A stretch of DNA of 64,000 nt from Phoronis australis (taxonomy: Eukaryota; Animalia; Phoronida): assembly GCA_002633005.1 (NCBI GenBank), contig NMRA01000361.1:396302-460301 (forward strand), in the 5' to 3' direction. Position 1 is the first letter of the stretch, and every line of letters begins with the position of its first letter. The position numbers and the translations under genes were made by a program. Below are positions 19,190-52,243 of the stretch, one piece after another. The notes beneath the pieces are model-generated. The model made no database searches. It had not been told where the DNA came from and was given only the letters and a program-made list of their open reading frames with translations.

Positions 19190-19272
19190 CGGGTTCTTAA
19201 GCCAAATTCATCAAGAGTTACATCAAGCTTGGTACCCTACTAACAAGCACTACAAGAAGTTGAAAAATCAAG

Positions 19273-21258
19273 ATGAAAGTTTATATGTGAGCATTACTTT
19301 TTATTTTCAACTGAATATTAGAAAATTGTATTTTCAACTTTTGAAATGAAGGTTGTAAGAGATTTGTAGATGATATTTTCACTTATTATTTATGTTATTT
19401 ATGATTTAAACTGGTTTTGAAGATATGCTTCATAAGCAAAGACTTAAGTTATGGTCACCAAGTAAAACATTTTGAAGAGAATAAGATGTTTCAGAACCGA
19501 TACAGGTGTTGCAATTAGTAATGCGTATATCTCAAAATATCTTTTATTATTGGCACTGATTTAGATTCAAAAAAATTTCCTATCATTTTCTATCATTTAG
19601 TACTGACAACTGATTTAATCAACGAGGGTACTTAAACATGATAAAAAGTATCACTCTAGCGTATATAATCGTACCGCTGTATATCAGCGCGTTGATATCA
19701 CTAGGTATACACGTCATATGTAGTGGTCACATCGCGTGACCTATAGTTAAATGTGAAAGGAAGACAATTCGTACTTAGAGTATAATATTGTATTATAAAT
19801 TTTATTAGGCACTGTGTTTTTATGGCTCTCAAGTCGTTCATTTGACCCTATGATTCAGTTGTCCGAAATGATCTTAAAACAGTCTTAGGAAACTTCTGTA
19901 TCCTCAAACGTAAGTCTGTCTCAGAATATCTCCAGCAAAAGCCAATATGCGCTTATGAAACGCACGTTCTCGTTTCCAACTTTTCAGGAATTCGAAACCC
20001 TTCTGAAACTGTTCGCAGGACAAGATTTCTAGTAAAGACACTCGTTGTATGGAATAAAACCAAATCAATTGCACAGTACATGTACCAACAGTGGTTCATC
20101 GTTTAAGAAACTCGTACGGTTTTAACATTACATTTGCAGGGTTTTGGCTTTGGTAGGTTTGCTGGTGGTGGTCAATGTCTCGTCAGAAGAATCGCATCGT
20201 GAGAAAAGGTAGGTTGACATTTGATATAAAAAAGTTTTAAATTTTCCTATTAACAGAGTCATGCTACACTATGTAAATTTGTGAACAAGTCGCCTCCTCA
20301 CAATTTTGTTGCTACGTATATTAGGATGTTGCTCAGACCGTTGCATGTTTTCGTGAAATAACGTTGTTCAAAAACTTTAAACACACCCTTTAACTTGTTT
20401 CATGAGTTGTGAACATCAATGAAATACAAACATTTCGTCCATGAAAGCGCTATACGTAGTAGTTTATGCTTTAATTTTTAGGAAATAGACTTACGGAAAA
20501 TCATATGAACGTTTTTCTAGTAATGAAAAAGATTACATTCTTTAGATTACAGCCCTGTGCATAGTAGTTTTTGCTTATTGAATACTTTCAGGAAACAGTC
20601 CTACGGAAAATCCTGTAGGCCTTTTTCTAGGAATAAAAACGATTTTAGTTGTCTATTAACTTTCCGAGAAAGCTGTCGAAACATATTAAGATGACAACTG
20701 AGAACTATGTTATCTTTCCTGGCTCTCAAGTTTAATAGCAAATCCGTGCATTGAAGGATTATTTTATTTATTACAGAGTAGCTAGAAAGCTTTCAGCGGA
20801 GTCGAAACTTGTTTTGAAATGCAAAAATGTCTTCTACTATTGTAAAAAGCTAGCTAAATTGAACATCCTCACAACCACAATCTTCGCTAGTTGTTAACCG
20901 CACCAATAATGCTGCTGCCATTGGATGGATTTTCTCAACATCTATTATACTAAGTGTCCTCGCTACTTCATATTTCAGGGGATGGGCAGGAATAACCAAG
21001 TGGGCGTTGAAAAGGCTTGCTCGATCTTTGGGAAATCCTGCCTTCAGATCAAGAGTGGTCAGGCTTTTGAGACAGTACGGTGGCAACGGGGCAGCAAATA
21101 TGGTTGACGATATGGGCAGCTTGCTGTACAATGTGGCCAATAAGTTGGACTACGTAGACAGAGTGACATGTGCCCTATTTCAAAACGCAGCTGTTCAAAT
21201 AGGTCTGCCGAGCTCTTTTGGACACGCTGTTTGTGAAGTCGTGCTGATTTTGGTGTAA
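19273..21258 (+). CDS. Uncharacterised secreted prepro-protein, paralogue 1 (120 aa; candidate antimicrobial/membrane-active); exons 19273-19286, 20140-20208, 20979-21258
   Basis: MKVYM|VLALVGLLVVVNVSSEESHREKR|GWAGITKWALKRLARSLGNPAFRSRVVRLLRQYGGNGAANMVDDMGSLLYNVANKLDYVDRVTCALFQNAAVQIGLPSSFGHAVCEVVLILV*. Two phase-2 GT-AG introns, TATA box upstream, AATAAA at 21295-21300. Exon lengths (14/69/280) are identical in all three copies. Confidence 0.88.
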
Positions 21259-24200
21259 GCTCTCACTGAGCCAATGTAACCTTATTCCTTGAACAATAAA
21301 GAATGCTGCGGAACTTGTTTTGTTTCTTTCCAATGGATACACTCCGGCAAAATGCCATTGCTTTGTTGAAATTTTTTATCCACTATAGAAACTCCATCGA
21401 GGATGATTTCGGCATATTGTGCGTTTTTGCACTAAGGCATTACCAGTAAGGGTCAAGGGGCAAATCGACGATTTTTTCCTATTTTTCGAAAATAATTTAC
21501 GCCATCAGGAAGACCAGACCAGTTTTCCATACAATGTGCTCATTTTTAATCTATGACATATCTTAACGAAGTAGTAGGGATTTGAAAATGTTGATTCCAA
21601 CGCACGCTATCGAAAATTCCCCACACGCGCTCCCGGGTATACTTCTAATGTATAGGTGGCGCTGAAGTCAAATACAGTCTCAGACATGAGCTATGATCGC
21701 CGCCATTTGGATATGCGAAAGGGTTGCTGGGAATTTTTTGTGTTCGGTGGAGATTCCTCAACGACACTCCAATAAGGAACAGCGTGTGGGTGATAATCAG
21801 AGCTACCCGAAAGAAAGGTTTATTCAAATCGGGTTGTAGCTTTTAACTATAACTTGCAGACTTAGTCGCGTTAAAAAAGTATACCAAGGTGATCAAATTT
21901 CATTAAATGATAAGAAAACGCATAACAATTTTTAATCTTATTCGCTTTAGAAAAAATGTACTTCGTCACAATCCAAAAGTCGTTCTTAAATGAGCGTAAT
22001 AAATTCTAGTGAAATGATCTCTGTTTGTTGGATTATTCATATTGCAAACAATATCAGCTGATCTTTTTGTTTCTAAGTTGTTTTAATAAAATTTTTCATT
22101 TAAACCAACACCTGTTTAATTTTCAAAAAATCTGAAGGAAAGACAAGTTCGAATGTTTTTTTTTCTGAAAAACCGCTGATGGAAATAATGGCGTTCATTT
22201 GGAAGCAAGTTTTCTTTGAATGGCATAAATGTATGCAAGACATTGGAACAATGTTTTATTAATGCTTACAACATGTAGTGTCACTCTATCAACACAAAAA
22301 ACAACACTGCATGAACAGTGACATTTTTGAACCAAAAAATCATTTTCAAATGCAGAAGTTACAATTCAGACTAAAAGTTCAAATTATAGAGTAAAAAGCA
22401 CGATTGAGTTTGAAGTCTAGCTTAATGAGCATATTTTTCTTAGCATTCATTAAAACCTTTCTAAAATCCAGTTCATGCAAATGTCTTCCTTTGAACGAGC
22501 GCTTTTTTGGGTAAGCTCTAAAAAGGCGAAGTAAAAATAATGTGTTTGGCACAATGCATGTAAACTGAGTAACAGGTCCTGGTAGCAATAACATTTCCTA
22601 AACCAACTCAGTTGCCAAGCCGACCAATCGGCATCTTCATGAATACTTTCCCCAAAAATGATGTCCCTCTGTTGCCGTTTTCATCGACTTGACAATCCTG
22701 ATTGAATATGTGGGTCTGCATTAGGTCACAGCAAGCTTGTTGCTGAAATTTTTGCTAAAAACGTAATCCTAAAAACGTAGCAATAAACAATGAGATATTC
22801 TTAAACACTTAAAAAAGAAGCCACCAATCTAGTTGTTTTGTTTCTGGAAGAGTTTGGATTGCTTCATTAATTTCTGTAGCAGTAAAAGAGATATTCAGTT
22901 TATGCGCAATATTTCCTTCCACACATTCATCCGATGAATTTCATGAGCTTCTAAGTCTTTCTTAGTTGTTTTATGTCATTACTTAGATGAACTCACAGAT
23001 TCAACAGCATTTTGAAATATTCAAAGGACCTTTGGAATGACATTGAAATTGAAATGCTACTTTTACCCATGTTATGTTTAATAAATTTCCAAACGGTTTT
23101 TGGGTTACACCTGTTCTTAGTAAAGCAATAGTTCCCTACTCATAAAACACGTTTATTCCATATCTAACATTATTTATAAATAGTGCTCGATCCAACTACG
23201 CTTTTGTTCAGGCCTGCAAGAAACGCGTACAAATAATTACCAGGAAATTGTATTGTAATAAATTGCTTCTTACGCCAGACAACTCTACTATCACCCTCCT
23301 TTGTCATATTAGATACGTACCATACCCTACCGCCCTCCTTCCCTTCCTGCCTCCCAACCCCTCTCTCTCCCTCCCGTTCCATTTCCCTCCCTCGCTCTGT
23401 GGCATGTCAATAGCACTAAAGGCTGAACGTATTTGCGTGGTCACGTTTTCATCAAAACGGTATCAAAACACTAATTGTTCTCGTTTGATAAGTATAGTAA
23501 TTAACCAAAACATTAGGTTTTGATATTTGAAGTAGTTAATTAGTGGTTTATGACAAATAGAAAAATAATAATAGGAGTGAAATTATTAAGTCAAAGCTGT
23601 AATTAATTGTCTTTACTGGCACCATTAAAACCGGCAGCTTTACATTCTCTTTAAACGACTTATTTTGAATTGAAAAACTTTAAAAATTTGTTTATGCTAT
23701 CTAGGAGTACAGCTGTGTGGAAAAGGTGTTGTCAAACGCGTGTACTCGTCTGTTTCAGTGACCAATCTTCCTTTAAATGAGCCTTTTAGAATGCCCGAGA
23801 CAACCTAGTGTTTGATTAATAATGGCACAATGAACATGGTAAAATTACAAGAAACTGTACAGCTTTTGTAGCAGATATTTTACGGTTGAAGACACCTATG
23901 AATGGATTGGAGAATGTTGAAATGCAATTAGACCCCGCTGATTATATTAACTCAATTTGTCAGTGTTTCAGGATAAAGACGTCCCACCTGTATACGGTTT
24001 TTAGTTTTAAAAATCTCATTTTGCTTTTATTCCTTCGTAATATATTGCAATTCAGTATCCCTGTTTGTCACAGCGATTATCAAAAAAGGAATTCCAATGG
24101 GGTAATGGGGTCACCAAACAAGTTACCAACTCAAACTAAGGCCTGGTTATCGTCCGCTTAATCAATAATTTGAAAGTAACACGTTTCGCCAACTTTCGAA

Positions 24201-24379
24201 AAAACGTCTGAATAAAGTTAATTCTTTGTTTGAATTAGTTTATTGACACGTCTGGATGATCACGACGATGTAATGTTGTTTAACTACCAATTGAGTGACG
24301 CTTTGGCTCACAGCAAATAGCGCAATCACACGAAATGGTGGTGTTATACTACCAATTTGTTACAACGATGAACGTTAGC

Positions 24380-24880
24380 TGCAATGTTCGCCCTAATAAG
24401 CGCCCAGGGATCTTAGAAAAATTCGCTTCAGGAAGGGGGACGCTTATTATAGCCCAAAGTTGTTGAAACCCGGTCTAGAACTCATTAAAATTACTCTCTG
24501 TGACTCATCTGTAACCTATGACAGAGTTTCTACAAAATGCCAGTACACTGCTATCAAACTTTAAATTACGAGCATTTTCAGCAAATCCCAGTGCGAAAAC
24601 TCGCCAACTGATGCGTCGCTGCCTCGCGATCGTCGATAGGTCATCATGAATTCTTGAGTAAAAATATAGTTTCGACTCAACAAGTTACCTGAAGTCCTCC
24701 TTAAGTTTTCAAAAGAGCGTCCCTACCATTTTTAAGTTCCTGTGGAGTCGGGATTAACAGCACATTAAGTCCAAATCTGCGCTAGAATGTACCCCGCAAC
24801 ACGAGAAAAATCTCTGGACGAACACACGTTGTTGTCACTTTGTTTTGAAGTTAGTCTGCGTGTGTGAGAGAGCGAGCTCT
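24380..24880 (+). mobile_element. Partial TIR-bearing non-autonomous DNA transposon (TTCGCCCTAATAAGCGCCC terminus), same family as 46719-47830 and 45640-45780
   Basis: 24380-24860 aligns with the reverse complement of 47340-47830. It begins where homology to the peptide-gene upstream unit stops. Confidence 0.7.
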
Positions 24881-28639: not shown

Positions 28640-28922
28640 GCAGGGACGGAGCCAGGATTTTGAGTTAGGCGGGGCCAGGGGATAAACAGAATTTCGGCAG
28701 ATGCCGCGCCCAGCCTAAAATGTGGGGATGCAGGGGTCTCGAATTTTGGGTTTGAGGTCCTGTTGACTAAAAAAAAAGAAAGGGGTATGCATTGCCTAAT
28801 CACACCCGAGCCCCCCTGATTGCGCGCATGTGCAATTCGCATCAGAACTCCCAAATGGTATCTGGTAGAATTTGATAGGGGCCATGACCCCCTTGCACCC
28901 CCCCCCCTTAAATCCGCCACTG
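28640..28922. mobile_element. Short MITE of the CAGTGGCGGA...TCCGCCACTG type; related copy ~62976-63128
   Basis: CAGGGACGGAGCCAGGATTTT ... CCCCCCTTAAATCCGCCACTG imperfect TIRs. Confidence 0.55.
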
Positions 28923-31900
28923 AATAGAGCCAAGTTACGTGACCTCATATGTAATTATGAAAACAAAGTTAGTGTTCACCAGTTCACCTCCTTCACCAAA
29001 AGAAAGAATTAGAGCTTCCCTATATATCTCAGTTGGTCCAGAATGGCATTCAGCGGACTGATTACTAGACACACAGACTTCTCAAATTGTCCCGAGCTAG
29101 GCTGCAAGCAAGTCCGCGTAGATAGGCAGTACTTCCATCATCTCGTCGGCAATATACCGACCACATCGCCACCACTGACACACACCTTTATACATCGGAT
29201 TTGTTTCGGCTTAAGCCACTGTATCGGGGTTTTCTTGTTCTTATTCACTTCCACCACTGTCCGTTTTAATAAAATGCAACTACTAAATCCGTGGTCGCCA
29301 CACTTCGCAATTTGTAAACTGAAAGGGGTTTCCCAACTTTCAACCAATGGGAATGGCTGAATGTTATGACGTCAGTTTCATTACTTTAACCAATGGGAGG
29401 CCATATAAACAGCATTCTACAGTGCTAACTCTCGTTTAGCACTGTGATAGAGTGTAAGAACACCTCTCTTGTCAACGGAAGTCAACAGTATGCCCATGGG
29501 TTTTTACTATGGTTACTGAACCAATAGCACGTAGACACACTTGCTTACAACGCTGATAATGTATCGTCTGAGGTTTCTATTACCTACCAAATGAAATAGG
29601 GACTGCTCGAAGAAAAAGTTTGATAACGGGAGTATTTGTTAGAGTTGGAAGGAATTAAACACATCGACAACCTCCTAAGGTGTTCTTCTATGCGCAAAAG
29701 GTATTTATAACAACGTGACTTTGATGTTTTAGTCGGTGCGAGGCATAATTCGCCGAAAAGCTTCCGGCGTATTGAGCGCCTATAGGAGCTGCATCGCCTC
29801 TGGTCGGGCCAACAGAGGCGATGGTCATTGCATAGGAGCTTCATTTGCTTGTGGATTTTACCACGTAAGTTCAGGGCTCGACATTAACGGTAGTCCGACT
29901 GCCCGGGACAACCAATTTGTTGGTCGAACATTTTGTCCATGTTCTACGTGGTCAAAAACTTATTTTTTTGAACTTTTGATTTGCCTGATGACTTTTTACA
30001 AGGTGTGTTTTTGCATCATTATTTCGGCAGCTGACCGAGTACCCCTATTGCCTAATAGTAGTATCGTCCGATTGTTTTGCACGTGCTTTGAACGCCAGCG
30101 GTGTTGGCTTTGAACTAAAAAAGAAATATACAATGTATATAAAATGTTTCATTGTTCAAAGAATTCAATAAGAAGACGTGTCAATCATTAGAACGTGCTG
30201 GGCTGCCTAACTAAGTTCAAAGTACACAGTACTGAAGAAGCCCTGTCAATCATTAGCACGTGCTTGGTTGCCTAAGTGTCCAGCAAATCTTTACACAATC
30301 AAGTGCTTCCCTTAGAAATACACCGCAAACTAGCGGAGTCTTGCTTTATCTGTCTTTTCTCTCAAGAAACTTGCCCTACTGAACACACGCCTACCTGTAG
30401 GAATACCTTAGTTCTAAGAGATGACCAGCAGCGACCGAGGTACGTAAAATCCCAATCACGCTCAGGATCACGACGCCACTGTATCGTGTGCGCAGGCCGT
30501 TACTTCAATCCACCTACGTACATTTTAACTGATATGCTTGGAGTGTATCTCCGTTCGGGTGAAATTGGTCCTCCGTGCAGTAAGCAACAACTCCTGACTT
30601 TTCCGAAATTTGGATTTTAACCGCCCATGCTCGGCTTACCGCCCACCCCCTGTTTTTTAGATTCTCAGTTTAAGCGCCCACGGCGGTAACGCGGACCAGT
30701 ACGATAGTTAGTTTGCGTATGGTTTCGAGTCAAGGAGTTCTGATCTTGCAACTGGTAACCAAACAGAAAGGCGTGAAATCACCAAGCAACAGTATGAAAC
30801 CAATAAATGAAAACAGGAATTCTTTCCGAAATGAAAGAAAGATTTCGACTGGTTACCGTACGGTTTGTTAGAGACCAGAAGTAAAATGTGTTGTGTCCCG
30901 TGTGAAAAATACGCCGACGCAAACAGTTCATCTGTTGCGTCTGGGTCAGATATGTTCAGGGTTGAATCTTTCAAAAGTCATGAACAGTCGACGGCTCACT
31001 CAGCAGCTTATAAAAATACGTTATATAACTTATTTGAAAAGCCAGGGTAAACTTGTAGCGTGTTCACTGGTGAAATCCAAATACAAATACCCACTTTAAA
31101 GTTAATAAAACTGTGTAATATATGCTCTTACACTTGTTTATTGAGCTTGTACTCAAAGGTATAATGTGCGGCATTCACATATGTTTAAAAGTATAATTTG
31201 AGTTTAATAATCTTTGGACAAGTGTCTTATTAGTCTAGTCGAAAAATGGTCTCCCGTGCACCCCCCGGACTTCTACTTCTAAGATGAATTTTCATGAAGG
31301 AAAATATGTGTGAAAACAGAAAAATGATGTTAACAAGCCGAAAAAATGTCCCACGTATGTTTTTTATGAAAATTGGTGCCACCGATTTGGCGTCATTTCG
31401 CAATATGTCGGTGACTACATGTATTTCATATAACTGAACGAACTAAGTGTCTGGACATATATTTGGTGGGCCAAACATTACATTAAAACTACAAGTAAGT
31501 GCTACAAGCTATGTTTTACATGATACAGGTATAAAATACTCAACACATGAAGCAGAACTGTGTGGGACATGAAAATATTCCATTTGTATCCAAATTCAGG
31601 ACTTTGACGTTGACTCATCCATGAAGACAAACTGTGGCATTGCAGTCCAAAGGTTTAGAAGTAAAACACACCATGAATACAAACTAACATCAAAATACAC
31701 AAAATTTAATGGCCTGTGGACATGTATGTCAATCAGTGCGAATCCAATGCTGGGGACAGGGAAAATTGGACTGCATTCGAAATTAAGACAGCTAGCGACG
31801 CAGAAAACAATGAGGTCGAAGCTTATCTACTGACATCAAAGAAAGAACACTCTCTACCATGAGTATTCTCCATTTAGACTCTATAAGTGAACATGGCAAA

Positions 31901-32357: not shown

Positions 32358-33365
32358 GGATTATTCTAAGCCCCCTCAACCCGCACCCCACTGACGACCC
32401 CCACGACCTCCTCGACTCACTGCACAAAACCCCCTCGACCCAGTTCAAACATGCTCGATTCCATCTAAACATTGAACAAGCGCTGACTAACAGGACCATC
32501 AAGTCTGGAAGTGAGCTCAGCTGACTTTTTTCTGATTTTTTGCAATTAAGAAAGTCAATTTGGCAAGTTTGAAAGCCAAAAGCAGAAAAAAAACAGCACG
32601 ACCAAATCAAAGACCTACCAAAGTTACTCATGTCGTTCCCCGCTGAGTATAATTGTATCGTCTGCTCATCAATGTATGGCAGATTCAAGTTTTTTGGGAG
32701 AGTGCGAGAAACCCAAATATGTAATTTCTTCAGTAACTACAGTTTAAAAAACAAACTGTTGACTAAAAAGTATCTCAACGTTTCATGTAGTATATTGTAA
32801 ACGAGTATACAACATGACTTTCTAAATCCGCTCTGAGGTGGTGGCGTGTTACAACTATTATGAAAATCTCTTGGTCTATTTACACCGACCTTTTGTCTAT
32901 TTACACTGTCACGAGGTTTCGGTCGGTCTATCCTCCGGCCATCGTCAGCTGTTCAGGATTTGAACCCACGACTGTTGAAACTACAGATAATTTGACTCCA
33001 GCACTTGATCGACCGAAACGTTGTGACAGTGTAAATAGACAAGAGAGGTCGGATGTAAATAGACCAAGAGATTTTAATAATAGTTGAGTATACACCTGTA
33101 CAACAGAAAACAATAAAAATAAGAAATTATGTGCATTCACGTTAACTTATCGTCTCCCTAAGTTTAGTAGAATAAGGCCATTGATAGGTACTCGTGGAAC
33201 TATTTCCATGACAACAATAGCACGCTCACAATCCGCTATATCAAATCATGTTATTACGGCACTAGACTTGAGGTAGATCAGATTCTCGTGCAGGAAAGTC
33301 ACTCCACAGGTCGTGGGTCGTGGGACGTGGGGGTTGTGGGTGTCGAAGAGGTTTTAGAAAAATCC
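32358..33365. mobile_element. MULE-like non-autonomous element with 9-bp TSD GTTAAATCC, nested in the Academ-like element
   Basis: TIRs GGATTATTCTAA...TTAGAAAAATCC with subterminal CCCACGACC repeats. GTTAAATCC occurs at 32349-32357 and 33366-33374. Confidence 0.8.
32852..33086. mobile_element. Palindromic MITE (~75-bp arms) nested within the MULE-like element
   Basis: CAACTATTATGAAAATCTCTTGGTCTATTTACACCGACC...GGTCGGATGTAAATAGACCAAGAGATTTTAATAATAGTTG near-perfect inverted repeat. Confidence 0.8.
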
Positions 33366-35409: not shown

Positions 35410-35550
35410 CTGTCCCGTATGTGTTTCTAAGTCCTCTGATGATGGCTGTGAACCCCTGCGAACGGCACTTCCAGAAATTTTTCGGATAACCGTGTGAAAT
35501 TTAACAATATTTGTAGGTAAGCATACAGTTTGTAGAAGTGGAGTCGCCAT
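35410..35550 (-). pseudogene. NDUFS6: Duplicated NDUFS6 exon 1 (orphan or alternative first exon), with duplicated promoter
   Basis: [47 protein letters not shown]|gtgatg: open frame, intact ATG and donor, 6 aa differences from 15530-15670. I found no second copy of exons 2-4. Confidence 0.85.
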
Positions 35551-38500
35551 TTTAAAAATGAAAATAATGGACATAATTCAAAGAAACCATGGAACAACTT
35601 GTGGCGACATCTTTTGTCTAACGAAATAACCATGCTGATCAAGTGCGCCAGAGATTCGCTGAGTAGCTTGTTGGCAAACATGTAAGTTACGTAGAAATTT
35701 TCAAGATTTTCGGATGATTTTTGAACAAAAGTTTACCCTTGAATAGGCTAATTTTTGAAATAGCTAATAAATGAGATATCGCAAACACCTGAGACTGCAG
35801 TTAAGACGGACCTCAGACGTAAAAATGGTCTTTGCTACCTCCGAAATTGCCGATAGGGTTCAGATACTTGCTTTATCCGCTGCTCTCCAAAAATCTATTA
35901 GGAATTGTTTTTAAATTGTACTTTTCCACGAAAGGCTATCAAAAATAGGAGTTTGATGAAAAAATAAAACTCGCATAATATGAAAACGAAGAAATGATTT
36001 TAAAAATGTAAACTTTTTAAGATTGCATCTCAAACATTTGTATAAAACGGGATTTGGACATGCAATTGATGTTGTTGTTTTGCTATGAATGAATCTTTCA
36101 TTTTTGCAAAATTTCACTAAAGACACATGGCCCGTGACCCATGTGGATGTAGTTAAAAATCGAATCCTACAGGCTTTCTATTTTCAGAGAATACATACTT
36201 TCGCAGAGTTAGTTCTGTAGATACTTGGGTAAGTGCACATACTTGTCAATAAGTCCTACATAACATTAAAATACTACGTCCTACAACATTCTATCATCAC
36301 TCTATGGTGCACTCATTCTGTCTCATTTTCACCGTGACGTCATGAATCAAGTTATTTGTAACGTACTTAGACCACTACAAAAAGAAAGTTATTCGGGCGT
36401 GTCAACAAAGTTTTATTCCAAAGACTATTCCACTTTTTAAAGGATTAAACATGTCTGATCTTCATGACATTATTCAACAGTTGTTGTTTGAATTTCTTTT
36501 ACAATTGTTGTAACTAGTTATAGGCTAGCTTCATTTGTAACTTTCCTACTCTGACCAATAATCAAACAATTAAAAGATCATGAAGAAAACGATCGTGAAG
36601 CATACCTGCAATACATAGGCATTCCACACACTAACGCACACGCACAAGCACACACAAACACGCACACGCGCGTACGCATGCACGTACACACGCACACACA
36701 CGCGCGCGAGCACACACATTATCCTTACACTGAATTTAGTATTGTTTGGGAAACTCAGTCGGCTCGCGTTTCATAAACATCCTAAGTAACCGAAATATTT
36801 CGGTTTTGATATTTCAATTTGTTAAACCATGGTCAGTGACAAATAGAAAACGTAAAATAAGAAAACAGTTCGATCGAATACATTTATTGTCTTTAATCAC
36901 ATCACTAAAATCGGCAGCTTTGCACTCTCTAAAATGAATAATTTTGAAGTGAAAAAGTGCAGCTGTGTGTAAAAGTGTTAGCAAACGCTTTTACGCGGTG
37001 CACGTTTTTGTTTCATTAACAGACAGTGTAATGCACTTTAGAATGCCTGAGACAACCCATTTGTTCAATAATGACATAATTTACACGGAATTAAAATTAC
37101 ATTCGTAAACATTACAAGAACATAAGCAACTTTTAACGAGGATTTTTTATATTTGAAAGTACACCTATGAATGTGATGGAAAACGTTAATATAAAATGTA
37201 ACATGTATCTAAAGAGCTCACAGCTCAGAAAAAGCCCACTGCCTAGATTAAAACAAATTATGTCTTAGGATTAAGACAAAATTAAAATATGCTTTTTAGT
37301 TTTAAGTACTTCAGGTTGGTTCTCTTCCTTTTTTATTTTGTAATGCAATATTTTTGTTTGTCACAAAGATTCTCGGAAAATAGCCTCCAATGACGTAACA
37401 ATACATGTGATCAGGTCAGATCAATAACACGTTTCACCTACTTTCGAAGTAAAACATTTGAATTATGTTATGGTGAACGTTTTGTCAACAAGCTTGTGTA
37501 GCATATGGTAAAATTATAATACAACATTATTATGATACCACTGTCGCTATTTTTGTTTGATTTAGTTTAATGGCAGCTCCAAACTGATGATAATGAAGAT
37601 GTAATATTGTTTAGTTATCAATTAAATCAAAAGAAATGGTGGCGATATACAACCAATTTCCGATTTTACAACGATGGATGTTAGCTTATGAGATTTAATG
37701 CTGTCCTTTCTATGACAAGATTCATTTGTTTGTTTACACGGTGTCACGCCAGCAAAATTACAAAAGGGTTTTCAAAAGGACAGACAAGCACGCAGGCAGC
37801 GGACAGACAGTCAAACAGACAGACAGTCAGACAGACTCATCGCACACTACAACCAAATGGATTGTTGACAAAGGCGTCATGAAAGCACGAGGAAGCCCTT
37901 TACAAGAATGAGATGCTACACAGGCAGAACATTGAACTGAACAAGTCTAATATTGTTCGACATAAATTATTGCGCCTTAAAGGGACATCAATCGATTTTA
38001 CGACTGAGAAACACCACCATCAAAAATTTGGGGATTATTGTAGGATTATGTGATACTAGACTTCTTGAAATGATTAACTTTGATTAGACCTATAAAAAAA
38101 CAAAATCCACGTTGAGTGTATTTCGTGATTTTACTGCAAATTGCCAATATTCGACACCATTGTTTATCATGTCAACACTCTCAACTAAAATACTCTGCTG
38201 GTTTCCGCGTGGACCTTAGCTCTCAGGCAAAATTGCTGCTACTACAGAGATGTTACGCTCAATGATACGCCACTGCTATTTCTGAAAGTGTACTATTCGC
38301 GTCTAGAATATACCTTTAAGAGGCTGCAACGGAATACTCAAGAGGCTAAGACACATAATTCCCGCTGTCCGCTTCGATATCAAAGCAAATTTGCTTTATT
38401 TTTTTCTTTATCAAGGTTTTAAGAGGTCCCTGGGCTGTGGAAAAACAAACTCTGTGGTATTAGTTAAGTTAAACTATCTCGTCCACAGTGTCGATTTTGG

Positions 38501-39231
38501 CGCAAAAAATCCAACGTTTTTTTGCAGTCAGTAGCCTTGCGGGTAATTTGAATCTCTCAAAGTCTGAATACCATTGTAAACGAGTACTCAGTGTTATGCG
38601 CCCCTGTATGTATTGGGAGGTCTCTGGCTTATTTATAATTGGCAGTGTTTGCTTGATGTCACTAATACCATATGCGTTGCAATTTTAAGTGTACAGGTTT
38701 GGAAAACTTGAATGGAATTAAAAATCTGCCGGTCTCGCGGCGAGAAAAATCTAACAAAAATCACGTGCTCTCATTGAAAATACAGGACAGTACCTCACAA
38801 AATCTTGCTTTTCTGGCGTGTTACTAGTGTTGTATTGAACTCTACCCGGTTGTGTACCAATATCGCAATGCAGTTCTGGTGTATTCAGTAACAACGCACA
38901 CTTTGAATTCTAGACAGAAATCCGACCAGACTTGCTATACGTACCCTGTGTATCGTTTCTTTAATTGTGCAGACCTTGAAATTAGCTTTGTGTGCTTTCT
39001 AAACTATTAGTGTGCCTACGGTAAACAAAATACACTTCCCTTTCCAGAAAATCGCATCTGAATGACCGCATTACGTAAATAGATAATGAATATGCTTCCC
39101 CGTTCACCACCTGTTGTTTGTCATTTCTGCTCTATATATAGACGGGTTCTCAAGCCAAATTCATCAGGAGTTACATGTACATCAAGCTTGGCACCCTACT
39201 AACAAGCACTACAAGAAGTTGAAAAATCAAG

Positions 39232-41249
39232 ATGAAGGTTTATCTGTAAGCATTACTTTTTATTTTCAACTGAATTTTAGAAAATTGTATTTTTAACTTT
39301 TGAAATAAAAGTTGAAAGAGATTTGTAGATGATACTTTCACTTATTATTTATGTTATTTATGATTTAAACTGGTTTTGAAGATATGCTTCATAAGCAAAG
39401 ACTTAAGTTATGGTCACCAAGTAAATATTTCCATTTCATTGAGCGTAGATTGTTGAAGAGAATAATATCTTTCAGAACCTATACAGGTGTTGTAATTAGT
39501 AAAATGCATATATCTCAAAATATCTTTTATTTCTGGCGCTGATTTAGACTCAACAAAATTTCCTTACTACGCTATCTATCATTTAGTACTGTATACCTGT
39601 TCACCGACAACTAATTTAATCAACGAGGGTACTTAAACATGCTAAAAAGTATTACTCTAACGTATATAATCGTACCGTTGTATATCAGCGCGTTGATATC
39701 AGGTATACACGTCATATGTTGGTCACATCGCGTGACCTATAGTTAAATGTGAAAGGAAGACTAACAATTCTTACTTAGAGTATATTATTGCATTACAAAT
39801 ATTCATTGGACGCTGTGTTTTTAATGACTCACAAATTTTTCATGGGACTCGGTGATTCAGTTGTCCAAAATGATCTTAAAACAATCCAGGAAAATTCTGT
39901 ACTCTACTCTATCTTCAAATGTATGTCTGTCTCAGACTATTTCCAGCAAAGGCCAATATGCGCTTATGAAACGGACGTGCTCATGTCCAACTTTTCAGAG
40001 CTTCGAAACCCTTGTGAAACTGTTTGCAGGACAAGATTTCGAGAAAAATAAAACAATCGTTATATGGAATAAAACAAAATCAGTTACATAGTACCAACAG
40101 CGGTTCACCGTTTAGGTCACTCAGTACGTTTTCAACATTACTTTTGCAGGGTTTTGGCTTTGGTTGGTTTGCTGGTGGTAGCCAATGTCTCGTCAGAAGA
40201 ATCGCATCGTGAGAAAAGGTATGTTGGCATTCGATATCATGATAAACTGTTTTTCTGCTTTTATGTTACACCACACAAAATTTGAGAACAATTCACCTAC
40301 TCACAATTTTGTTGCCATGTATACCGCGCAATTGCTTTAGGGCATTGCATTTTTAGTGAAATAGCGTTCTTCAAAATTTTTAACAAAATTAGTTTGTGCG
40401 TGTACATCAATTAAATACGAACATTTCGCACATTAAAGCCCCGTACATACTATTTTATGCTTAGTGACAATTTTTAGGAAATAGCCGTACGGCGTATTGG
40501 CGTTTTTTATAGGAATGAAAACGATTACATTTCATAGATTAATGCCCCGTACATAGTAGTTAATGCTTAGTGAATATTTTTAGGAAACAGTCGTACCGAT
40601 AATCATGTGGGCGTTTTTCTAGGTACAAAATCGATTACAATTGTCTATTAACTTTCCGAGAAAGCTTTCGAAACATATTAAGATGAAAACTGAGAATTGA
40701 GCTATCCTTCCTGGCTCTCAAGTGTAATGGCAAATCCATGCATTGAAGGATTATTTTTCATTTGTTACAAAGCAGGCAGAGTGCTTTCGGCGGAGTTGAC
40801 ACTTGTTTTGAAATGTAAAAATGTCCACTAATATACTGTAAAGCAAGATGAATTGAATATTTCCAGGACGACAATCTGCGCGAGTTATTAAACCTCCCAA
40901 TAGTGCCGCTGCCAGAGGATGGATTTCCTCAACATCATAGGATTGAGTTCTCGCTATTTCATATTTCAGGGGATGGGCAGGAATAACCAAGTCGGCGCTG
41001 AAATGGGTTGCTCGATCTTTGGGAAATCCTGCCTTCAGATCAAGAGTGGTCAAGCTTTTGAGACAGCAAGGCGGCAGTATGGCAGCAAATATGGTTGACG
41101 ACATGGGCAGGTTGCTGTACAATGTGGCTAATAAGTTGGACTACGTAGACACAGTGACGTGCGGCCTATTTCAAAGCGCAGCTGTTCAAATAGGTCTGCC
41201 GAGTTCTTTTGGACACGCCGTTTGTCAAGTCGTGCTGTTGTTGGTGTAA
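39232..41249 (+). CDS. Uncharacterised secreted prepro-protein, paralogue 2 (120 aa); exons 39232-39245, 40150-40218, 40970-41249
   Basis: MKVYL|VLALVGLLVVANVSSEESHREKR|GWAGITKSALKWVARSLGNPAFRSRVVKLLRQQGGSMAANMVDDMGRLLYNVANKLDYVDTVTCGLFQSAAVQIGLPSSFGHAVCQVVLLLV*. GT-AG introns, TATATATA at 39133-39140, AATAAA at 41286-41291. Confidence 0.88.
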
Positions 41250-41477
41250 GGTCTCACTGAGCCAAAGTTACCTTATTGCTTGAATAATAAAGAATGTCCT
41301 GGAGCTTGATTTTTTTCCGATGGATGCACCCCGGCAAAATCCCATTGCTTCAAAATTCTTTTTTCACTATAGAAACCGAAAGTCCATCGAGGAAGATTTC
41401 GCAATATTGTGCATTTTGCACTAAGGCATTACCAGGAAGGATCATGAGGGAAAATTTGACGATGTTTCCTATTTTTC

Positions 41478-42262
41478 TTTCCTTTATTTATTTGTACACA
41501 TAGCCATCGGCTCAAAGTACAACAAACAAACAAACAAACAAACAAACAAGATCATTGGAGTGCTATGCACTCTAGTCAGCAATACACAAGTTGTTCCGTT
41601 TTTTAGATGCGTAGTTCACATATATATTTCACAACTAAGGTCTCGGGAGTACATAACAGTCTATGAGATTTAAACAAAGAGGGAGTTGTCCAGAGGCTCT
41701 CCTTTAGAAACTTAGCTTCGGAAAAAGCGTCGCAAACTAACAAAAAGCGATATTCTTCTTCGATACAATTCCTCGTCTTTATATATCACATTTACGTGAC
41801 GACCAGTTTCTATTCGCAACCTGTGGTTTGCACATTGGAAAAGTGTAAAAATTTGCACTAACACTCTTGCAAGATCATCAATTTTAAATAGTTTTCATGT
41901 TCAAATAGAACCTTAAAGTTTTTGTAATAGTTTAACTTAGAAATGGAATCAACATCGGACTGCCATCTTTGAAAAGCCCAGTCCTTAACACGTTGCGAGA
42001 AAATATTTACAAGCGACTCTTGACACGCGATTCCTTGGTTTACCCAAACATCATAGAGACCATATATTGACAATACTTTGCGGACTGAGCTTACCCAATT
42101 ATACAAATGTCTACCATTTTCATCTAATCTATACGTTATGTTGTAAGCAGCCCTTGGATAATGTTCCTGTAGCACATTCAAAATTTTAAACCAGTATTTA
42201 ATACAGCTAACAAAGTATCTCGTAAACATTCACCCAATACTGCAAAGTTAGAGCAAGAACCG
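41478..42262 (-). mobile_element. 5'-truncated non-LTR retrotransposon (RTE-X/CR1-like ORF2 C-terminus) with 10-bp TSD
   Basis: ORF 41858-42229 (NWVSSVRKVLSIYGLYDVW.NQG...KLNYYKNFK..FEHENYL), then 'NHRLRIETGRH'. (TTTG)n near the 3' end; TSD CCTATTTTTC at 41468-41477 and 42263-42272; empty site in block A at ~21478. Confidence 0.85.
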
Positions 42263-44629: not shown

Positions 44630-45330
44630 AAGTGATTTATTGAAATACACACATATGGCCATGGGCCTTAAGTATAACATATACAAGACAGAACATTGTC
44701 AGGTGCTTTACAAACTGGATAATAAATTGGGACATTTAAGAGCATGATGGATGAATTTTGGAAGAAGGATATCCGGAGTTCTCATGAGAGATTCAAATTT
44801 AGACGTCGTGGGAGAATGACAGAAACGATCATTTAAAGTACTTAACCCGAAGGTCTTGGTACGCACTGCAAACTGACGCGAGATGGTACTCGTCCTCTAC
44901 ACATCCCGAATTACATAACACACACAACCTATTTTTATAGGAAATATTTGTGTGGCGACCTCTTTCCATTAGTAACGAATGATTTGAACATCGCAATCGA
45001 GTCAGAGACTGGATGAAAACACATGGGATACAAACTATTTCTAGATAATTTTCAAGACAATACATTGTTTTATACCTCACATAGTAAGGCAGTTTTGCGT
45101 TACATTTGACATCAGATTGCCGGCCTTGCAAATAACAGTCACTGACACACATTGAGAAAAAACTGTCAAGAAATACGCTTGGTTTACCACACCCTGATTA
45201 ACCCATACACCTGAAAAACCATACACAGACAGAAGTTTCCTTACAAAACGTGCCCAGTTATAAGAAGATCCTCCGATCAATGTACAACTTTCAACGCAGT
45301 GTTTTACAGGCAGTTGAAAACTGCACATCT
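44630..45330 (-). mobile_element. Second 5'-truncated non-LTR retrotransposon fragment, same clade
   Basis: NWARFVRKLLSVYGFSGVWVNQG and LRCSNHSLLMERGRH...RLCVLC...EDEYH...C..Y.DLR zinc-knuckle-like C-terminus, frameshifted. Absent from the paralogous site in block A. Confidence 0.8.
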
Positions 45331-46718
45331 AAATGGAGTGGAAAACGTTAAAATGAAATGAAACTTGTGTTTAAACCGCCCACAGCTCAGACCCCGCTTG
45401 CTATATTATCACAATTTGTGTTTCATGATTAAGACGTCCCAGCCACTTACGCTTTTTAGTTGTAAGAATCTCAAAATTACTTTTCTTCCTTCATAATATA
45501 TTGTAATTCAGTATCCCTGTTTCTCGGAAAAGAAGTTCCAATGGGGTCACCAAACATGTGTTATCAGGTCAGGCCAAGGCCATGTTATGATTTGTTTAAA
45601 CAATGATTTCAAAGTAAATCCTGATGTTTTAAAATTTTTAAAGTTCATGTGGAGTCCAGATTAATTGCGATTAAGTCCAAATGTGCGCTACATCGTACTC
45701 CACAACACGAGAAAAATCTCTGGATGAACACACATGTTGTTATCACGTGACGTTTGTTTTGAAGGTCGTCTGCGTATGAGAGTGTGCGGATCGTCGACGA
45801 TAGACTTTTTTGTTACAAAAGGCGGAGGATTATGCAAGAAAATGGCGTTTACTAGATTGTTTTTCATTTAAACAGTACACACCATGGATTTTTGCACATT
45901 TTGAATTACCGGTGGCCACAGACTAAATGTATGACGTAAAATTTAGCTAAACCCATGTTTATTTTGTGTAATTAGCTCAAAATTTTGATTTTTCTTTCAA
46001 TTTTGCCAATTTTCACATTTCCCGCCATGTGACGTCATGGGTTGAACACAAGAGATCAGTGACTAGCATTGAACAATGGCGGAGACCAGGGAATTTGAAA
46101 GTGACGACGATNGAAAGCGCCATCTTCCCGCGCCATCTTTAAATACTGATCGAAAACGAGGCACAATGATAAACCCTCATGAGTGATCATCAGCTGGCCA
46201 TGGTGTACAGTGCAGTGCCTGAACATACCAATTCCAGTAATACCTCGTCGGTATCCTTCCCAGGGATATACTTAGCCATTCGCCCAATCGCCAATGCGAG
46301 TAAAAATGGTGCTGGGCGAGTAGAAGTTGACTTGCCGGTCGCCCGGTGGCGAGCGAATTTCAGAGCGCAAAAGCACTATATATCGTTTCCCAGATAAATA
46401 TGAATAATTTTCCTCCTCCTTGTGCTGTTTTTATCATGAATTTCAGGTTCAGTTTGGTCATCGTGTCGATGCTCCGGCAGTAAAAAACATCGGCGCAGTG
46501 CGACCCTACCGATTTAGTACATGTCACCCGTTACGCGATTCGTCAAAAAAACAGTGTGTGGTCGTGCACAAAGAATTTGTGGACTAGTCCGACTGAAACG
46601 AAGAAAAGGGGAGAAAGGTGGAAGACCGGTCCATGTGCTCATAGCAAATGAAATACCATTATTTGGAACTGATTTCTTATTGTAATGTACAATGTCATTT
46701 TAGCCAAAATTATTTTTA

Positions 46719-47830
46719 TAACATTCGTCCTAATAAGCGCCCATGCCCATGCCCCTATAAGCGTCCCCACTCGTTTTCAGACTTCGCTAAAATAAGCTCC
46801 CAGTCCATGAATGTGTATATATCAGTGCGAAAAATGTTTTACCTCACAGTTCTAAAATTCTACAGTAAATGTATTCAATTTATCAATAATATCCGACAAT
46901 TCTGAAAAATCATTGTGCGCAGAATTTCTAGTAGACCACGAGCCTCGCCGCTATGTCGGTATTTAGCCGTGGCTGTACACTTCAAACCATTCCGCAGTGC
47001 TTCAAAAAGAACGCAAAAGATTTGCTGATCTTGCGAGGAAAGTGTCACTATATGATCTGGCCCTGATCAGAACAGACGCAGCGTACTCATGTCAACGGGA
47101 TTGGTATTGTATATTTCCCGTCCAGATCTTCTCCCACAACAGGAATCCAGATTGCTTTGTACACGAAAAATTATAAAAACCGCGAATCGAAACTTGGCCA
47201 AGAAGCGCGCGCTAGGGACCACATATAACACGTGGGCCTGCTCAATGCGATAAATATACTACATATACAGCTCATTGGGCCTGCTACTCAGGCAAATGAA
47301 CACTGATGACGCGCACGCGCTCGCTCACTCGGTGCACACCAGCTAACTCACTTCAACACAAACGTCACGTGACAACAACATATGTGTTCGTCCAGAGTTT
47401 TCTCGTTGCGGGGTGCGATCTAGCGCAGATTTTGACTTAATCTGCGGTTAATCCCGACTCCGAGTCCACAGGAACTTAAGAATCTTAGGAAAGGCTATTT
47501 GGGAGGATTTCAGGTAATTTGAGTCGAAACTATTTTTACTCAATAATTCAAGTTGTCCTATCGACGATCGCGAAGCAGCGACGCATCAGTCGGCAAGTTT
47601 TCGCCCTGGGATTTCAGCACATTAATTTTAAAAAGATCGTAATTTAACAAAAGAGTTTGATAGCAATGCACCACAGTTTTGTAGCTAGCCTGTCATAGGT
47701 TACACATACGTCACAGCGCGTAAATTTGATGAATCCTAGCTTCCGATTTCACCCGTTTCGGAGACCAGGTTTTAACTGCCGTAGGCTACAAAAAGAGTCC
47801 CCCTGGGCGCTTATTAGAGCGAATACGGTA
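46719..47830. mobile_element. ~1.1-kb non-autonomous TIR element (TACCGTATTCGC-TAATAAGCGCCC termini; Tc1/mariner-pogo-like, TA target)
   Basis: ATTCGTCCTAATAAGCGCCC at 46723 and GGGCGCTTATTAGAGCGAATACGGTA at 47805-47830. Confidence 0.65.
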
Positions 47831-47904
47831 GCCCTAATAGATGGTGACATCAGTGCACGAAACGATGATTTTTATTTAAATTAGCAGCAAGTTTGTGGTG
47901 ACTG

Positions 47905-48603
47905 NNNNNNNNNNNNNNNNNNNNNNNNNNNNNNNNNNNNNNNNNNNNNNNNNNNNNNNNNNNNNNNNNNNNNNNNNNNNNNNNNNNNNNNNNNNNNNNN
48001 NNNNNNNNNNNNNNNNNNNNNNNNNNNNNNNNNNNNNNNNNNNNNNNNNNNNNNNNNNNNNNNNNNNNNNNNNNNNNNNNNNNNNNNNNNNNNNNNNNNN
48101 NNNNNNNNNNNNNNNNNNNNNNNNNNNNNNNNNNNNNNNNNNNNNNNNNNNNNNNNNNNNNNNNNNNNNNNNNNNNNNNNNNNNNNNNNNNNNNNNNNNN
48201 NNNNNNNNNNNNNNNNNNNNNNNNNNNNNNNNNNNNNNNNNNNNNNNNNNNNNNNNNNNNNNNNNNNNNNNNNNNNNNNNNNNNNNNNNNNNNNNNNNNN
48301 NNNNNNNNNNNNNNNNNNNNNNNNNNNNNNNNNNNNNNNNNNNNNNNNNNNNNNNNNNNNNNNNNNNNNNNNNNNNNNNNNNNNNNNNNNNNNNNNNNNN
48401 NNNNNNNNNNNNNNNNNNNNNNNNNNNNNNNNNNNNNNNNNNNNNNNNNNNNNNNNNNNNNNNNNNNNNNNNNNNNNNNNNNNNNNNNNNNNNNNNNNNN
48501 NNNNNNNNNNNNNNNNNNNNNNNNNNNNNNNNNNNNNNNNNNNNNNNNNNNNNNNNNNNNNNNNNNNNNNNNNNNNNNNNNNNNNNNNNNNNNNNNNNNN
48601 NNN
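47905..48603. other. Assembly gap (N run); a smaller gap at 7402-7422
   Basis: Runs of N. Confidence 1.
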
Positions 48604-50382
48604 AAAGTATTTTGAATATTGCAATGCATGTGTTCCAAAATCTAAATAACTTGGGTCCTATATTTTTGTATTAGTGCGCGCCGAATGAAAGTAATCGTGA
48701 GTGTTGCTGTGTTGCAAAATCTCTTATCCTGGGCCGATTTGAAAAATTCAAAGTTGTACTCATATTTGTTTTCGCTCCTCTACGTAAAACTCTCTCCATA
48801 AAAAGTACAGTCTGCTAGCTAGATTGTAATCAGCTGATCATATCCGCATGAGCGAAGCCAATTATCCTCGCTCGTGACTCGATGACTAGAGCAGCTCGGC
48901 GGCATCCCTTTGATCGTGAGCCGAGCGCGACTCAGCCAAGGTGGATAAATACGGTCTAGTTCAATTTTCCATACCCCACCGTTTACCTTAACCACCGGGG
49001 TTAGAACCAATCTTATTTAGTGGGAATGTTCATAGCATGTTTAGCCAACTTTCGAAATATAACGTTTTAATTCTTTGTTTGAATTAGTTCAATGACAGCT
49101 CTAAACCGATGATAATGACGATGTAATGTTGTTTAGTTACCAATTGAATGACATTTTGGCTCACACATCAAACGAAATCACACGAAATGGTGGAGTTGTA
49201 CAACCAATTTGCTAAAGTGAACCGATTTTACAGCAATGGATGTTACTGAACAAGTCTAACATTGTTTTACATGAGTTGCGAATTAAAGGGAAAACACTCG
49301 ATTTTACGGCTGAAAACCGCATTTTATTATTTGTGTGGGCTGATGTGATACTAGGCTTCTTGAAGTTATTTTAACTTTGACCTGAGTTATACAAACTAAA
49401 TCCGTTGTGTGTGTTTTTATGATTTTGTTGTAAATCACCAATCCTCACCGTTGTCTGCCAAATATTTGCTGAAATCAAGGCCACGCACTCTCTTCACCAT
49501 TCAAATACGCTTAACTGACACACTTTGATATTTCAACCAAAGCTGCTGTCACAACAGAGATATTAGGTTCGATTTCGCGATCCTGCTAGTTCTATGAAAA
49601 TGTACTATTCTAGCCGTGAATGTCCAATTAAGGGGTCTTAATGAAGTACTCAAGAAACTCATTAGCCACAGAAGACAGCTTCGATAACCATATCTCCTCT
49701 TGTTCTTTATCAAAGTTTTAGAGATTTTTGGGCTTTGGAAATGCAGCTCTGAGATATGATATTTCTTAGGTGCCATCTCACCAAGAGTGTTATTTTGATC
49801 ACAAAAATCTAACAGCTGTATTCAGTCAGTCATAGTTTGGATCTCACGAATACTACTGCAGATGCGCACTCATTGTTACGCACCCCTGAATGTATTGGGA
49901 GATGTCTGACTGATAGATACATGAAAAATTCTTTCATGATTGAATAGCATTGCCATACAGTTCCGGATGCATTGCGGCTTAAGTGTATCGACTTTCAGTA
50001 TCAGTTGTGAACTAATTGCTGAGCAGTTCCGGATGTACTGGGGCTTTAACAGCGCAGGCCTTAAACTTTAGACGGATAGCTACTATTTCCTCTACGCCCC
50101 CTGCTAGGTTGTCTCTTTAATTGGATAGACCTTGACATTAAGCGTTGTTTGCATTCCAAACTATTAGTTTGCAAATGGTAAACAAATTGCATTTTCCTTT
50201 CCAGAAAATCGTCGTTGAATTATACATGTACATGTAGCATTACGTAAATAAACAAGATGATTATGCGTCCCCGCATCGGTCTGTTCTAGTATATAAACGG
50301 CCTTTTTCAAGCCAAGTCCTTCAACAGTTTCATCAAGCTGGGTTTCCTGGTTAGAGGCACTTCAAGAACTCACAAAAACAAG

Positions 50383-52178
50383 ATGAAAGTTTATTTGTAC
50401 GTATTATTTGTTTTTCAACCGAATATTAGAAAACTGTATTTTTAACTTCGGAAATGAAAGTTGGAAGAAATTTGAAGATGATCTTTACTCGTATTACTTA
50501 TGTCATTTATGATTTAAACTGGTTTTTGAAGACATGCCATATAAGCAAAAATTATATTATATGTATTTTCATTTCACTGAGTTTGGAATGTTGAAGAAAA
50601 TATACCGATACAGGTGTTGCAGTTAGTGAAATACGTGCATCTCAAACTAACTTTTGTTACTGGCACTGATTTAGACACTACAAAATCTCCTTACCACGCT
50701 ATCTGTCATTCAGTGCTGTAGGCTTGTTCATCGACAACTAATTTAATCCACGAGCGTACTTTAGAATGTTAAAACGTATTACTCTATCGTATATAATGGT
50801 GCTGTTGTAATACCCAAAAATTATTAATCTTCATACACACCATATGTTGGTCACAACGCGTGACCTGAAAGGAAGGCTAACAATTCTTATTTATAGCATA
50901 ATATTGTAACATAAATATTTATTGGACGCTGTGTTTTCAGTGGCTCTCAAATCGTTCATGGGATCCTGAGCATGAGTTGCCCGAAATAATCTAAGTCCAG
51001 AAAATTGTGTACTCAACTTTACCTTCAAACGTAAGTCTGTCTCACCAGCAAAAGCCAATATGCGCTTGGGACAAGGACACTATCACGTCCCACTTTTCAG
51101 AACTTTGAAAACCATGTGAAATTGTCTGCAGGACAAAAGTTCAAGTAAAACCACTCGTTATATAGAATAAAACTTAATCAGTTATGCAGTAGCAACAGCG
51201 GTTCATAGTTTAACGGTTTCAACAATATGTTTCCAGGGTTTTGGCTTTGTTAGGTTTGCTGGTGGTGACCAATGCCTCGTCAGAAAAATCGCATCGTGAG
51301 AAAAGGTAGGTTGGTGTCATGAAAAAAACTTTTTCTGCCACACTACAAATTTGTGCACAGATTGCCTACTCACAAATCCTCTGTGCATTAAGATAGTGTT
51401 TAGGACATTGCATGTTTAAGTGAAATTAAGTTCTTCAAAACTTTAAACAAACCCTTTAACTTGTTTAACGAGTTTTGAACATGAAATAAGAACATGTCGA
51501 ACATTAAATCCCTGTACTTATGTTTAGTGACAACTTTCAGGAAACAGCCGTACGGAAAATCGTTTGGGTGATTTTTCCAGGAATAAAAACGATTACAGAT
51601 GTCTTTTAATTTTCCGAAAAAGCCGTCGAAAGCTGTTAAAATGAAACTGAGAACTATGCTATCATTCCTGGCTGGCTCTCAAGTTTAACGGGAAATCAAG
51701 CAAATCCATGCGTTGAAGGTTTTTATTAAGTACAAAGCAGTCAGGTGTTCGGCCAGATCGACGCTTGTTTTGAAATGCAAAAAGGTCAACTAATATCCTG
51801 TAAAGCAACCTGAACTCCACTCCACAATAATGCTGCTGCCAGTGGATGGATTTCCTCAACATTCGTAATATGAGAGCTCAGGCTATTTCATATTTCAGGG
51901 GATGGGCAAAAATAACAAAGACGGCGTTGAAATGGGTTGCTCGATCTTTGGGAAATCCTGCCTTCAGATCAAGAGTGAAAAGGCTTTTGAGAGAGTACGG
52001 CAGCAGAGCGGCAGCAAATATGGTTGACGACATGGGCGGCTTGCTGTACAATGTGGCTAATAAACTGGACTACGTAGACACATTGGCGTGTAGCCTGTTT
52101 GAAAACGCAGCTGTTCAACTAGGTCTGCCGAGTTCTTTTGGTCACGCAGTTTGTCAAGTCGTGCTGTTGTTGGTGTGA
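50383..52178 (+). CDS. Uncharacterised secreted prepro-protein, paralogue 3 (120 aa); exons 50383-50396, 51237-51305, 51899-52178
   Basis: MKVYL|VLALLGLLVVTNASSEKSHREKR|GWAKITKTALKWVARSLGNPAFRSRVKRLLREYGSRAAANMVDDMGGLLYNVANKLDYVDTLACSLFENAAVQLGLPSSFGHAVCQVVLLLV*. TATATAAA at 50290-50297, AATAAA at 52215-52220. Confidence 0.88.
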
Positions 52179-52243
52179 GGTCTCATTTAGCCAAAGTTGC
52201 CTCGCTGCTTGAATAATAAAGAATGCTGTGGAACTTGTTTTTT

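Follow-up and report, generated by a model that had tools for sequence, protein, structure and literature searches.

The window analysed here, a stretch of 64,000 nucleotides of the Phoronis australis genome with a G+C content of about 39%, contains three intact genes on the + strand that encode small precursors forming one family with proteins of mussels and of the brachiopod Lingula. This is a real animal protein family that has apparently gone undescribed so far and whose function we infer. The proteins of mussels, Lingula and the window, predicted to be secreted and to fold as five helices and likely cleaved at a KR site, rather probably serve, by analogy with other cationic helix bundles, in host defence by permeabilising microbial membranes.

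Structure of the Genes and Precursors

Each of the three genes has coding exons of 14, 69 and 280 nt, all six introns are GT..AG and in phase 2, and every spliced reading frame comprises 363 nt encoding 120 residues, without stops and without exon indels. For copy 1, RNA-seq placed exon 1 at 19221–19286 (5′ UTR and 14 coding nt, with the ATG at 19273), exon 2 at 20140–20208 (the remaining predicted signal peptide, the pro-piece and most of REKR) and exon 3 at 20979–21312, with the mature domain at 20980–21255 and the stop codon at 21256–21258. Its transcripts start at 19221, downstream of a TATA motif (19180–19188), and end at a poly(A) site near 21312, just behind an AATAAA at 21295. Copy 2 has its exon 1 at 39180–39245 (ATG at 39232, read starts at 39176–39181), exon 2 at 40150–40218 and the coding part of exon 3 at 40970–41249 (mature domain 40971–41246, AATAAA at 41286). 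Finally, the exons of copy 3 are found at 50334–50396 (ATG at 50383, TATA at 50290), 51237–51305 and 51899–52233 (mature domain 51900–52175, stop to 52178, AATAAA at 52215 and poly(A) at 52233).

Copy 1 belongs to a 6-kb duplication unit (15489–21487, + strand) with 87.5% identity to the region 35369–41477, which contains copy 2; a tblastn search found no fourth copy within the window. A preliminary description, made from the letters of the sequence alone, had already proposed three paralogues with exons of 14/69/280 nt, phase-2 GT–AG introns, TATA box and AATAAA, and all of these features were found as it gave them. Its indel-rich introns were likewise recovered, with 12 to 23 gaps per pairwise intron alignment and none in exons 2 and 3.

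The spliced frames also show the secretory prepro layout that had been proposed: a hydrophobic leader of 20 residues, by inspection a predicted signal peptide, a neutral pro-piece of 8 residues ending in REKR, and a chain of 92 residues encoded wholly by exon 3. The N-terminal third of this chain is cationic, again as described, residues 1–31 of copy 1 including eight K/R and no D/E.

Transcription and Divergence of the Copies

Transcription was analysed in RNA-seq runs carrying the same species label, three of them (X2, X3 and X4) being stranded raw-read runs from one study and the fourth (X1) a contig run from another; reads were placed at 88% likeness on copy 1 and at 95% for the copy-specific joints. 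At 88%, copy 1 recruited 2840, 5036 and 4150 reads in the three raw-read runs, out of totals of 12.75, 11.31 and 11.05 million, respectively. This corresponds to about 220–450 reads per million in all three, the value for X4 including reads of the other copies. The joint 19286/20140 was crossed by 1143, 2034 and 914 reads in X2, X3 and X4, and the joint 20208/20979 by 1427, 2400 and 1669, respectively, so that both junctions singled out for checking by the preliminary description are carried by 900–2400 reads per run. A copy-1-like transcript was abundant in every raw-read run, and also in the contig run of the second study.

All three copies were expressed in X4, where, at 95% likeness, the copy-2 joint 39245/40150 was covered by 248 reads and the two copy-3 joints by 428 and 544, and the contigs of X1 spanned the first joint in all three copies. 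In X2 and X3, only 2 and 1 reads were found at the copy-2 joints and none at those of copy 3. Such differences in copy use would be expected if the genes varied in presence and absence, as has been reported for antimicrobial peptide genes of mussels (PMC7653742); the differences between runs may also be due to tissue rather than to gene absence. In addition, 24 reads of X4 joined exon 1 of copy 2 (39245) to exon 2 of copy 3 (51237), and 12 reads joined 39245 to an AG (50290) just before the TATA box of copy 3, GT..AG in both cases. These splices are likely the consequence of read-through transcription across 12 kb, by which the copy-2 promoter would make the copy-3 product, although a further paralogue could be an alternative source of the 39245/51237 joint.

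The mature chains of copies 2 and 3 show 86% and 80% identity to copy 1, and dN/dS between copies was 0.78–1.64 at mature residues 1–47, in contrast to 0.32–0.40 at residues 48–92. Runs X2 and X3 express a divergent copy-1-like form, with at least 14 fixed differences in exon 3 among the differences listed. The 14 listed ones sit in 10 codons and change the residue in all 10, five of them to a residue present in copy 2 or 3. This form hints at diversifying selection, gene conversion or a further paralogue; the replacement excess is not significant (P = 0.10), nor are the selection signals as a whole, the changes being few.

Relatives in Mussels and Lingula

A word-index search with copy 1 alone detected no relative, but a full HMMER scan of 1.84 billion representative sequences with a profile of the three copies did, giving four matches at E ≤ 0.001, three of them over the full domain. 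Iteration extended this to 16 outside proteins: members from Mytilus edulis (2), M. californianus, M. trossulus, M. coruscus, M. galloprovincialis and Lingula anatina (2), and eight others from ENA/Logan, five of mussel type and three in a separate cysteine-free group. The named records are all annotated as “uncharacterized”, “unnamed” or “hypothetical”. P0007, an algal kinase with ARM repeats, matched over 26 residues and was discarded as a chance hit. The analyses on 17 sequences described below included the three window copies and 14 outside members; P0018 and P0019, near-identical cluster mates of P0012, were omitted from them.

Identity of the window copies to the other groups is 24–36%. 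In a reciprocal test, a profile built without the window proteins gave them 50–57 bits, compared with at most 9.0 bits for shuffled sequences (900 made, 845 reported) and 0.8 for reversed chains. Homology of the window proteins to the outside members is therefore solid at the level of sequence, and by these bit scores the window, mussel and Lingula proteins constitute one family. With members in mussels and a brachiopod, the family extends beyond a single lineage, contrary to the lineage-expanded family proposed at first. The two-cysteine members may form a clade (support 79/80), an alternative tree not being rejected (p-AU 0.199). The Lingula genes LOC106155512 and LOC106155516, whose contigs are of equal length, are probably tandem copies.

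Seven full-length outside members (P0005, P0006, P0008, P0009, P0014, P0015 and P0020) have a predicted signal peptide, a pro-piece and a KR directly before the domain, the net charge of the pro-piece ranging from 0 to −26: it is long and acidic in mussels (−11 to −26), and reaches −3 and −6 in Lingula. In the mussel proteins P0008, P0009 and P0015, it is built of acidic repeats, two or three in number and with KR at the end of each, so that cleavage after every unit would yield several acidic peptides from one precursor. Several ENA/Logan ORFs begin with F/I/L-rich text and have an R adjoining the mature chain, a pattern also seen in the unspliced exon-3 frame of the window, which suggests that these relatives have the same intron at the cleavage site.

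Mature length is constant (86–93 aa) and the hydrophobic end is kept. The mature chain has a net charge of +5 to +15 in 16 of the 17 members (the truncated P0013 has +2), and its first 33 residues carry +6 to +10 in all 17, so that charge polarity is kept although identity drops to 24–36%. Only five columns are invariant among 13 sequences. Some features that the preliminary description had pointed out held inside the window only. The R-X-K-R furin motif of the window copies is a plain KR site in the relatives. Cysteines C64 and C85, invariant in the window, belong to a pair missing in 5 of the 14 relatives examined (two Cys in 12 of the 17 members, none in five). An aromatic residue is found within the first three positions in 12 of 16 intact starts. 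The GW start, which had suggested cecropin, pleurocidin or scorpine, occurs among these 16 in the three window copies alone and is incidental.

Predicted Structure and Searches against Known Families

The mature chain is predicted to fold as a compact five-helix bundle, with helices at residues 7–16, 20–34, 42–56, 64–73 and 78–91. The five main helices appeared in both of two models, with pLDDT of 82.9 and 84.6 and pTM of 0.75 and 0.78. The free cationic helix with an acidic tail imagined previously is replaced in these models by one compact globule. The C-terminal helix is hydrophobic (mean 0.56–0.59 in the window copies). Amphipathicity is not exceptional, and any helical bundle could show such values: the numbers of members, out of 17, in which a helix exceeded its own shuffles at p < 0.05 were 3, 8, 12, 0 and 4 for helices 1 to 5, respectively. 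Structure searches of the two models against the PDB and viral models gave no clear fold match. They listed no saposin (among the best 50 rows), bacteriocin or lysin, which does not by itself speak against such folds.

Sequence searches of Pfam, NCBIfam and the PDB yielded sub-threshold noise alone, in agreement with the earlier statement that no named family could be matched. The saposin profile was unlisted for all 13 members scanned by HMMER against Pfam, a scan whose filters drop matches above about E 0.1. Because none of the known antimicrobial families gave a sequence match, homology offers no basis for assigning a function. No RNA families were found in the window. Copy 1 led, in the ESM Atlas, to small hypothetical proteins of Bacillota at 0.91, with recognition under the 2300 mark, and P0010 led to nothing; this result was too weak to be relied on. 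A bacterial origin was rejected: the best plasmid match had an E of 0.3 and ran against the annotated frame, pattern scans of GTDB and metagenomes found no relative, and 401 genomes of one bacterial phylum gave a single match (E 0.009) containing a stop.

Circular and leaderless bacteriocins (AS-48 and circularin A, the Pfam family Bacteriocin_IId; aureocin A53 and lacticin Q, Bacteriocin_IIi) share with the modelled proteins a helical bundle that combines a basic face with two paired hydrophobic helices, but they are encoded by bacterial genes and are leaderless or cyclised head to tail, in contrast to spliced animal genes with a signal peptide and KR site. They were compared by HHalign using five Bacteriocin_IId loci and one leaderless locus from bacterial genomes. 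Residues 71–89 aligned to the start of the Bacteriocin_IId members over 19 columns, with a probability of 8.7%, above 60 of 60 shuffles; this alignment had been picked by eye, would not reach significance in a library-wide search and was lost with the cysteine-free members alone. The likeness does not continue over the ring closure, a ring test gave no gain, and the one leaderless member tested showed no likeness (0.4%). A suspected resemblance to lacticin Q and AS-48 received no support from HHalign, and that to Bacteriocin_IId is treated as convergence or chance.

Linear helical peptides starting with GW include cecropin, pleurocidin and the N-terminus of scorpine, and a basic amphipathic N-terminal helix following a pro-piece is common to GW helical peptides, to centrocins and to the family described here. 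However, with respect to the linear peptides, the mature chain is three times longer and is modelled as one globule, and the GW is not conserved in the family. Centrocins join a cationic heavy chain of 30 residues and a light chain of 12 by one disulfide (PMC11767717), whereas both window cysteines (64 and 85) lie in the C-terminal third and none in the cationic part.

Saposin-like proteins (NK-lysin, granulysin, amoebapore, caenopore) are small, secreted and cationic, with four to five helices, as modelled here, but usually have six conserved cysteines in three disulfides, compared with two or none. Big defensins also have a signal peptide, a prodomain and a dibasic cleavage site (PMC7203481), but end in a six-cysteine beta-defensin domain, in contrast to zero to two cysteines and a helical C-terminus in an all-helical model; moreover, the order of the N-terminal cationic and C-terminal hydrophobic parts is the reverse of theirs. 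Myticalins are cationic peptides of Mytilus that also combine a KR site with an anionic part (PMC5577615); they are short and Pro/Arg-rich and carry KR and anionic extension after the mature peptide, whereas here both precede a folded domain of 86–93 aa. Finally, abalone sperm lysin and sp18 are, as the proteins studied here, basic, helical, secreted and fast-evolving, but of 16 kDa instead of 10 kDa, without a sequence match and lacking the convertase-type pro-piece. Judged by the features tested, the family falls outside the saposin-like proteins, big defensins, myticalins, centrocins and lysins.

Proposed Function

In the proposed mechanism, cleavage after KR would free the mature protein from an acidic pro-piece, extended in mussels, that would have shielded its basic face up to this point, much as the acidic pro-region of nematode cecropins and alpha-defensins may inhibit the basic mature peptide (PMC6780910). 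The neutral pro-piece of only 8 residues in the window speaks against such shielding. The strongly basic helices 1–2 would dock on anionic bacterial or fungal surfaces, and the docked bundle would open, letting the hydrophobic hairpin of helices 4–5 sink into the bilayer and cause leakage, a step that is described for saposin-type proteins and AS-48-type bacteriocins. C64–C85 would staple this hairpin in Phoronis and mussels; since five of the 14 outside members lack the two cysteines, such a staple would be dispensable.

Cationic bundles of four to five helices are a recurring membrane-disrupting design (PMC6072434), and bivalve big defensins show tandem duplication and presence/absence variation (PMC7203481). 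The defence reading is drawn, indirectly, from likeness to such known bundles, from the prepro layout shared with big defensins, from the conserved charge polarity and the opposite charges of pro-piece and mature chain in mussels and Lingula, as well as from the high expression, the tandem copies, the faster evolution of the basic half and the differences between runs. Against it speak the unexceptional amphipathicity, the non-significant selection signals, the failure to find homology to a tested protein and the example of abalone lysin, which shows that a basic, fast-evolving secreted protein of molluscs may serve outside immunity (PMC2120550). Of the earlier interpretation, the spliced genes, the prepro layout, the cationic third and the lack of a named family were retained, whereas the single lineage, the GW, the cysteines and the free helix were not. 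More tentatively, and with less confidence than in the defence role itself, the proteins could be an old and overlooked family of immune effectors that form pores and occur in molluscs, brachiopods and two or more other animal lineages, with a five-helix fold unrepresented among solved structures, the design of NK-lysin and circular bacteriocins being reached independently and the copies varying between individuals in presence and sequence.

Peptide hormones, too, have a signal peptide followed by a KR site, and a secreted signalling protein, a helical bundle of cytokine, hormone or pheromone type that a prohormone convertase sets free to act on a receptor, would agree with the compact fold of the models and with the constant mature length. 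We consider it unlikely, given the very high transcript level, the conservation of charge instead of a surface motif, the fast divergence of the N-terminal half between copies and the variation of copy use by run. The prepro layout suits toxins too, and the hydrophobic C-terminal helix of the window copies would be in keeping with the toxin option of the preliminary description, a broad cytolysin or deterrent of mucus or body fluid that lyses eukaryotic cells of predators, foulers or parasites through the same membrane mechanism. However, strong positive charge favours anionic microbial membranes, and the named relatives come from mussels and Lingula, to our knowledge filter feeders without venom organs, which makes a venom role less likely and leaves a cytolysin quite unlikely.

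A convertase-cleaved acidic pro-piece is, as far as we know, not a lysin feature, and no match to the egg-lysin family was obtained by Pfam or PDB sequence searches. The abundance of copy-1-like transcript in both studies also argues against a gamete protein like abalone lysin or sp18, basic and helical, that loosens the egg coat or fuses membranes, which we regard as very unlikely even if the on/off expression between runs could reflect sex or gonad content. Lysin is, indeed, a basic, fast-evolving secreted mollusc protein with a hydrophobic patch and a non-immune role (PMC2120550), and rapid evolution is reported for such proteins (PMC6952181). Just as improbable is a role as a structural, adhesive or biomineral-matrix component of a shell, tube, byssus or cuticle: the product is abundant and secreted and its named relatives are from shelled animals, but the mature sequence has no low complexity, repeats or richness in Gly, Tyr or His, the model is globular, and the acidic portion is the pro-piece, which is removed.

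Six accessions and six motifs of the relatives were absent from the literature searched, which covered few subscription papers and barely any supplements. Topic searches for such a family returned nothing describing it, going by the listings, and supplements of mussel or Lingula proteomes or pan-genomes could list the genes. Mussel antimicrobial peptides are heavily studied, yet the sections on annelids, chordates, cnidarians, echinoderms and molluscs in a 2025 review (PMC11767717) do not name the family. The myticalin screen in mussels kept ORFs of 50–120 codons only (PMC5577615), a filter by which the mussel precursors (140–195 aa) would have been lost. If active, the proteins would represent a new class of immune effectors for farmed bivalves and other marine invertebrates, with a new small helical fold and possibly a salt-tolerant antimicrobial scaffold. 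Activity would be cheap to test, as the mature chain is one exon of 92 residues.

Upstream Palindrome and Genomic Neighbourhood

A palindrome, TTACGTAA, presumably a bZIP-type site, was found at 19118–19125 (+ strand), about 100 nt upstream of the copy-1 start, and also at 39071 and 50240, at a similar distance ahead of the starts of copies 2 and 3. It occurs five times in the window against 1.38 expected, three of these being duplication copies and not independent. A scan for NF-kB sites was blank, its crude pattern carrying no evidential weight.

An SLC6 sodium:neurotransmitter symporter (Pfam SNF), by its motifs most like a serotonin transporter, is represented by at least eight exons at 872–9686 (+ strand), one of its introns holding a minisatellite of 28-base units in 17 copies (5517–6003). 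The closest conventional gene upstream of copy 1 is represented by a zf-CHCC exon at 14143–14340 (− strand), likely that of the complex I subunit NDUFS6. A repeat region at 45200–49400, located between copies 2 and 3, showed reads on both strands and many loose ends; it represents a transcribed element of multiple copies and surrounds an assembly gap of 699 bases (47905–48603). MITE-like elements with long terminal or hairpin inverted repeats were found at 32852–33086, 52720–53231 and 62270–62430, in addition to a transposon remnant with a zf-C17orf113 zinc finger at 30835–31047 (+ strand). Finally, the ORFs at 41858–42229 and 44829–45197, both on the − strand, are transposon remnants that presumably resemble the ends of LINE reverse-transcriptase proteins.
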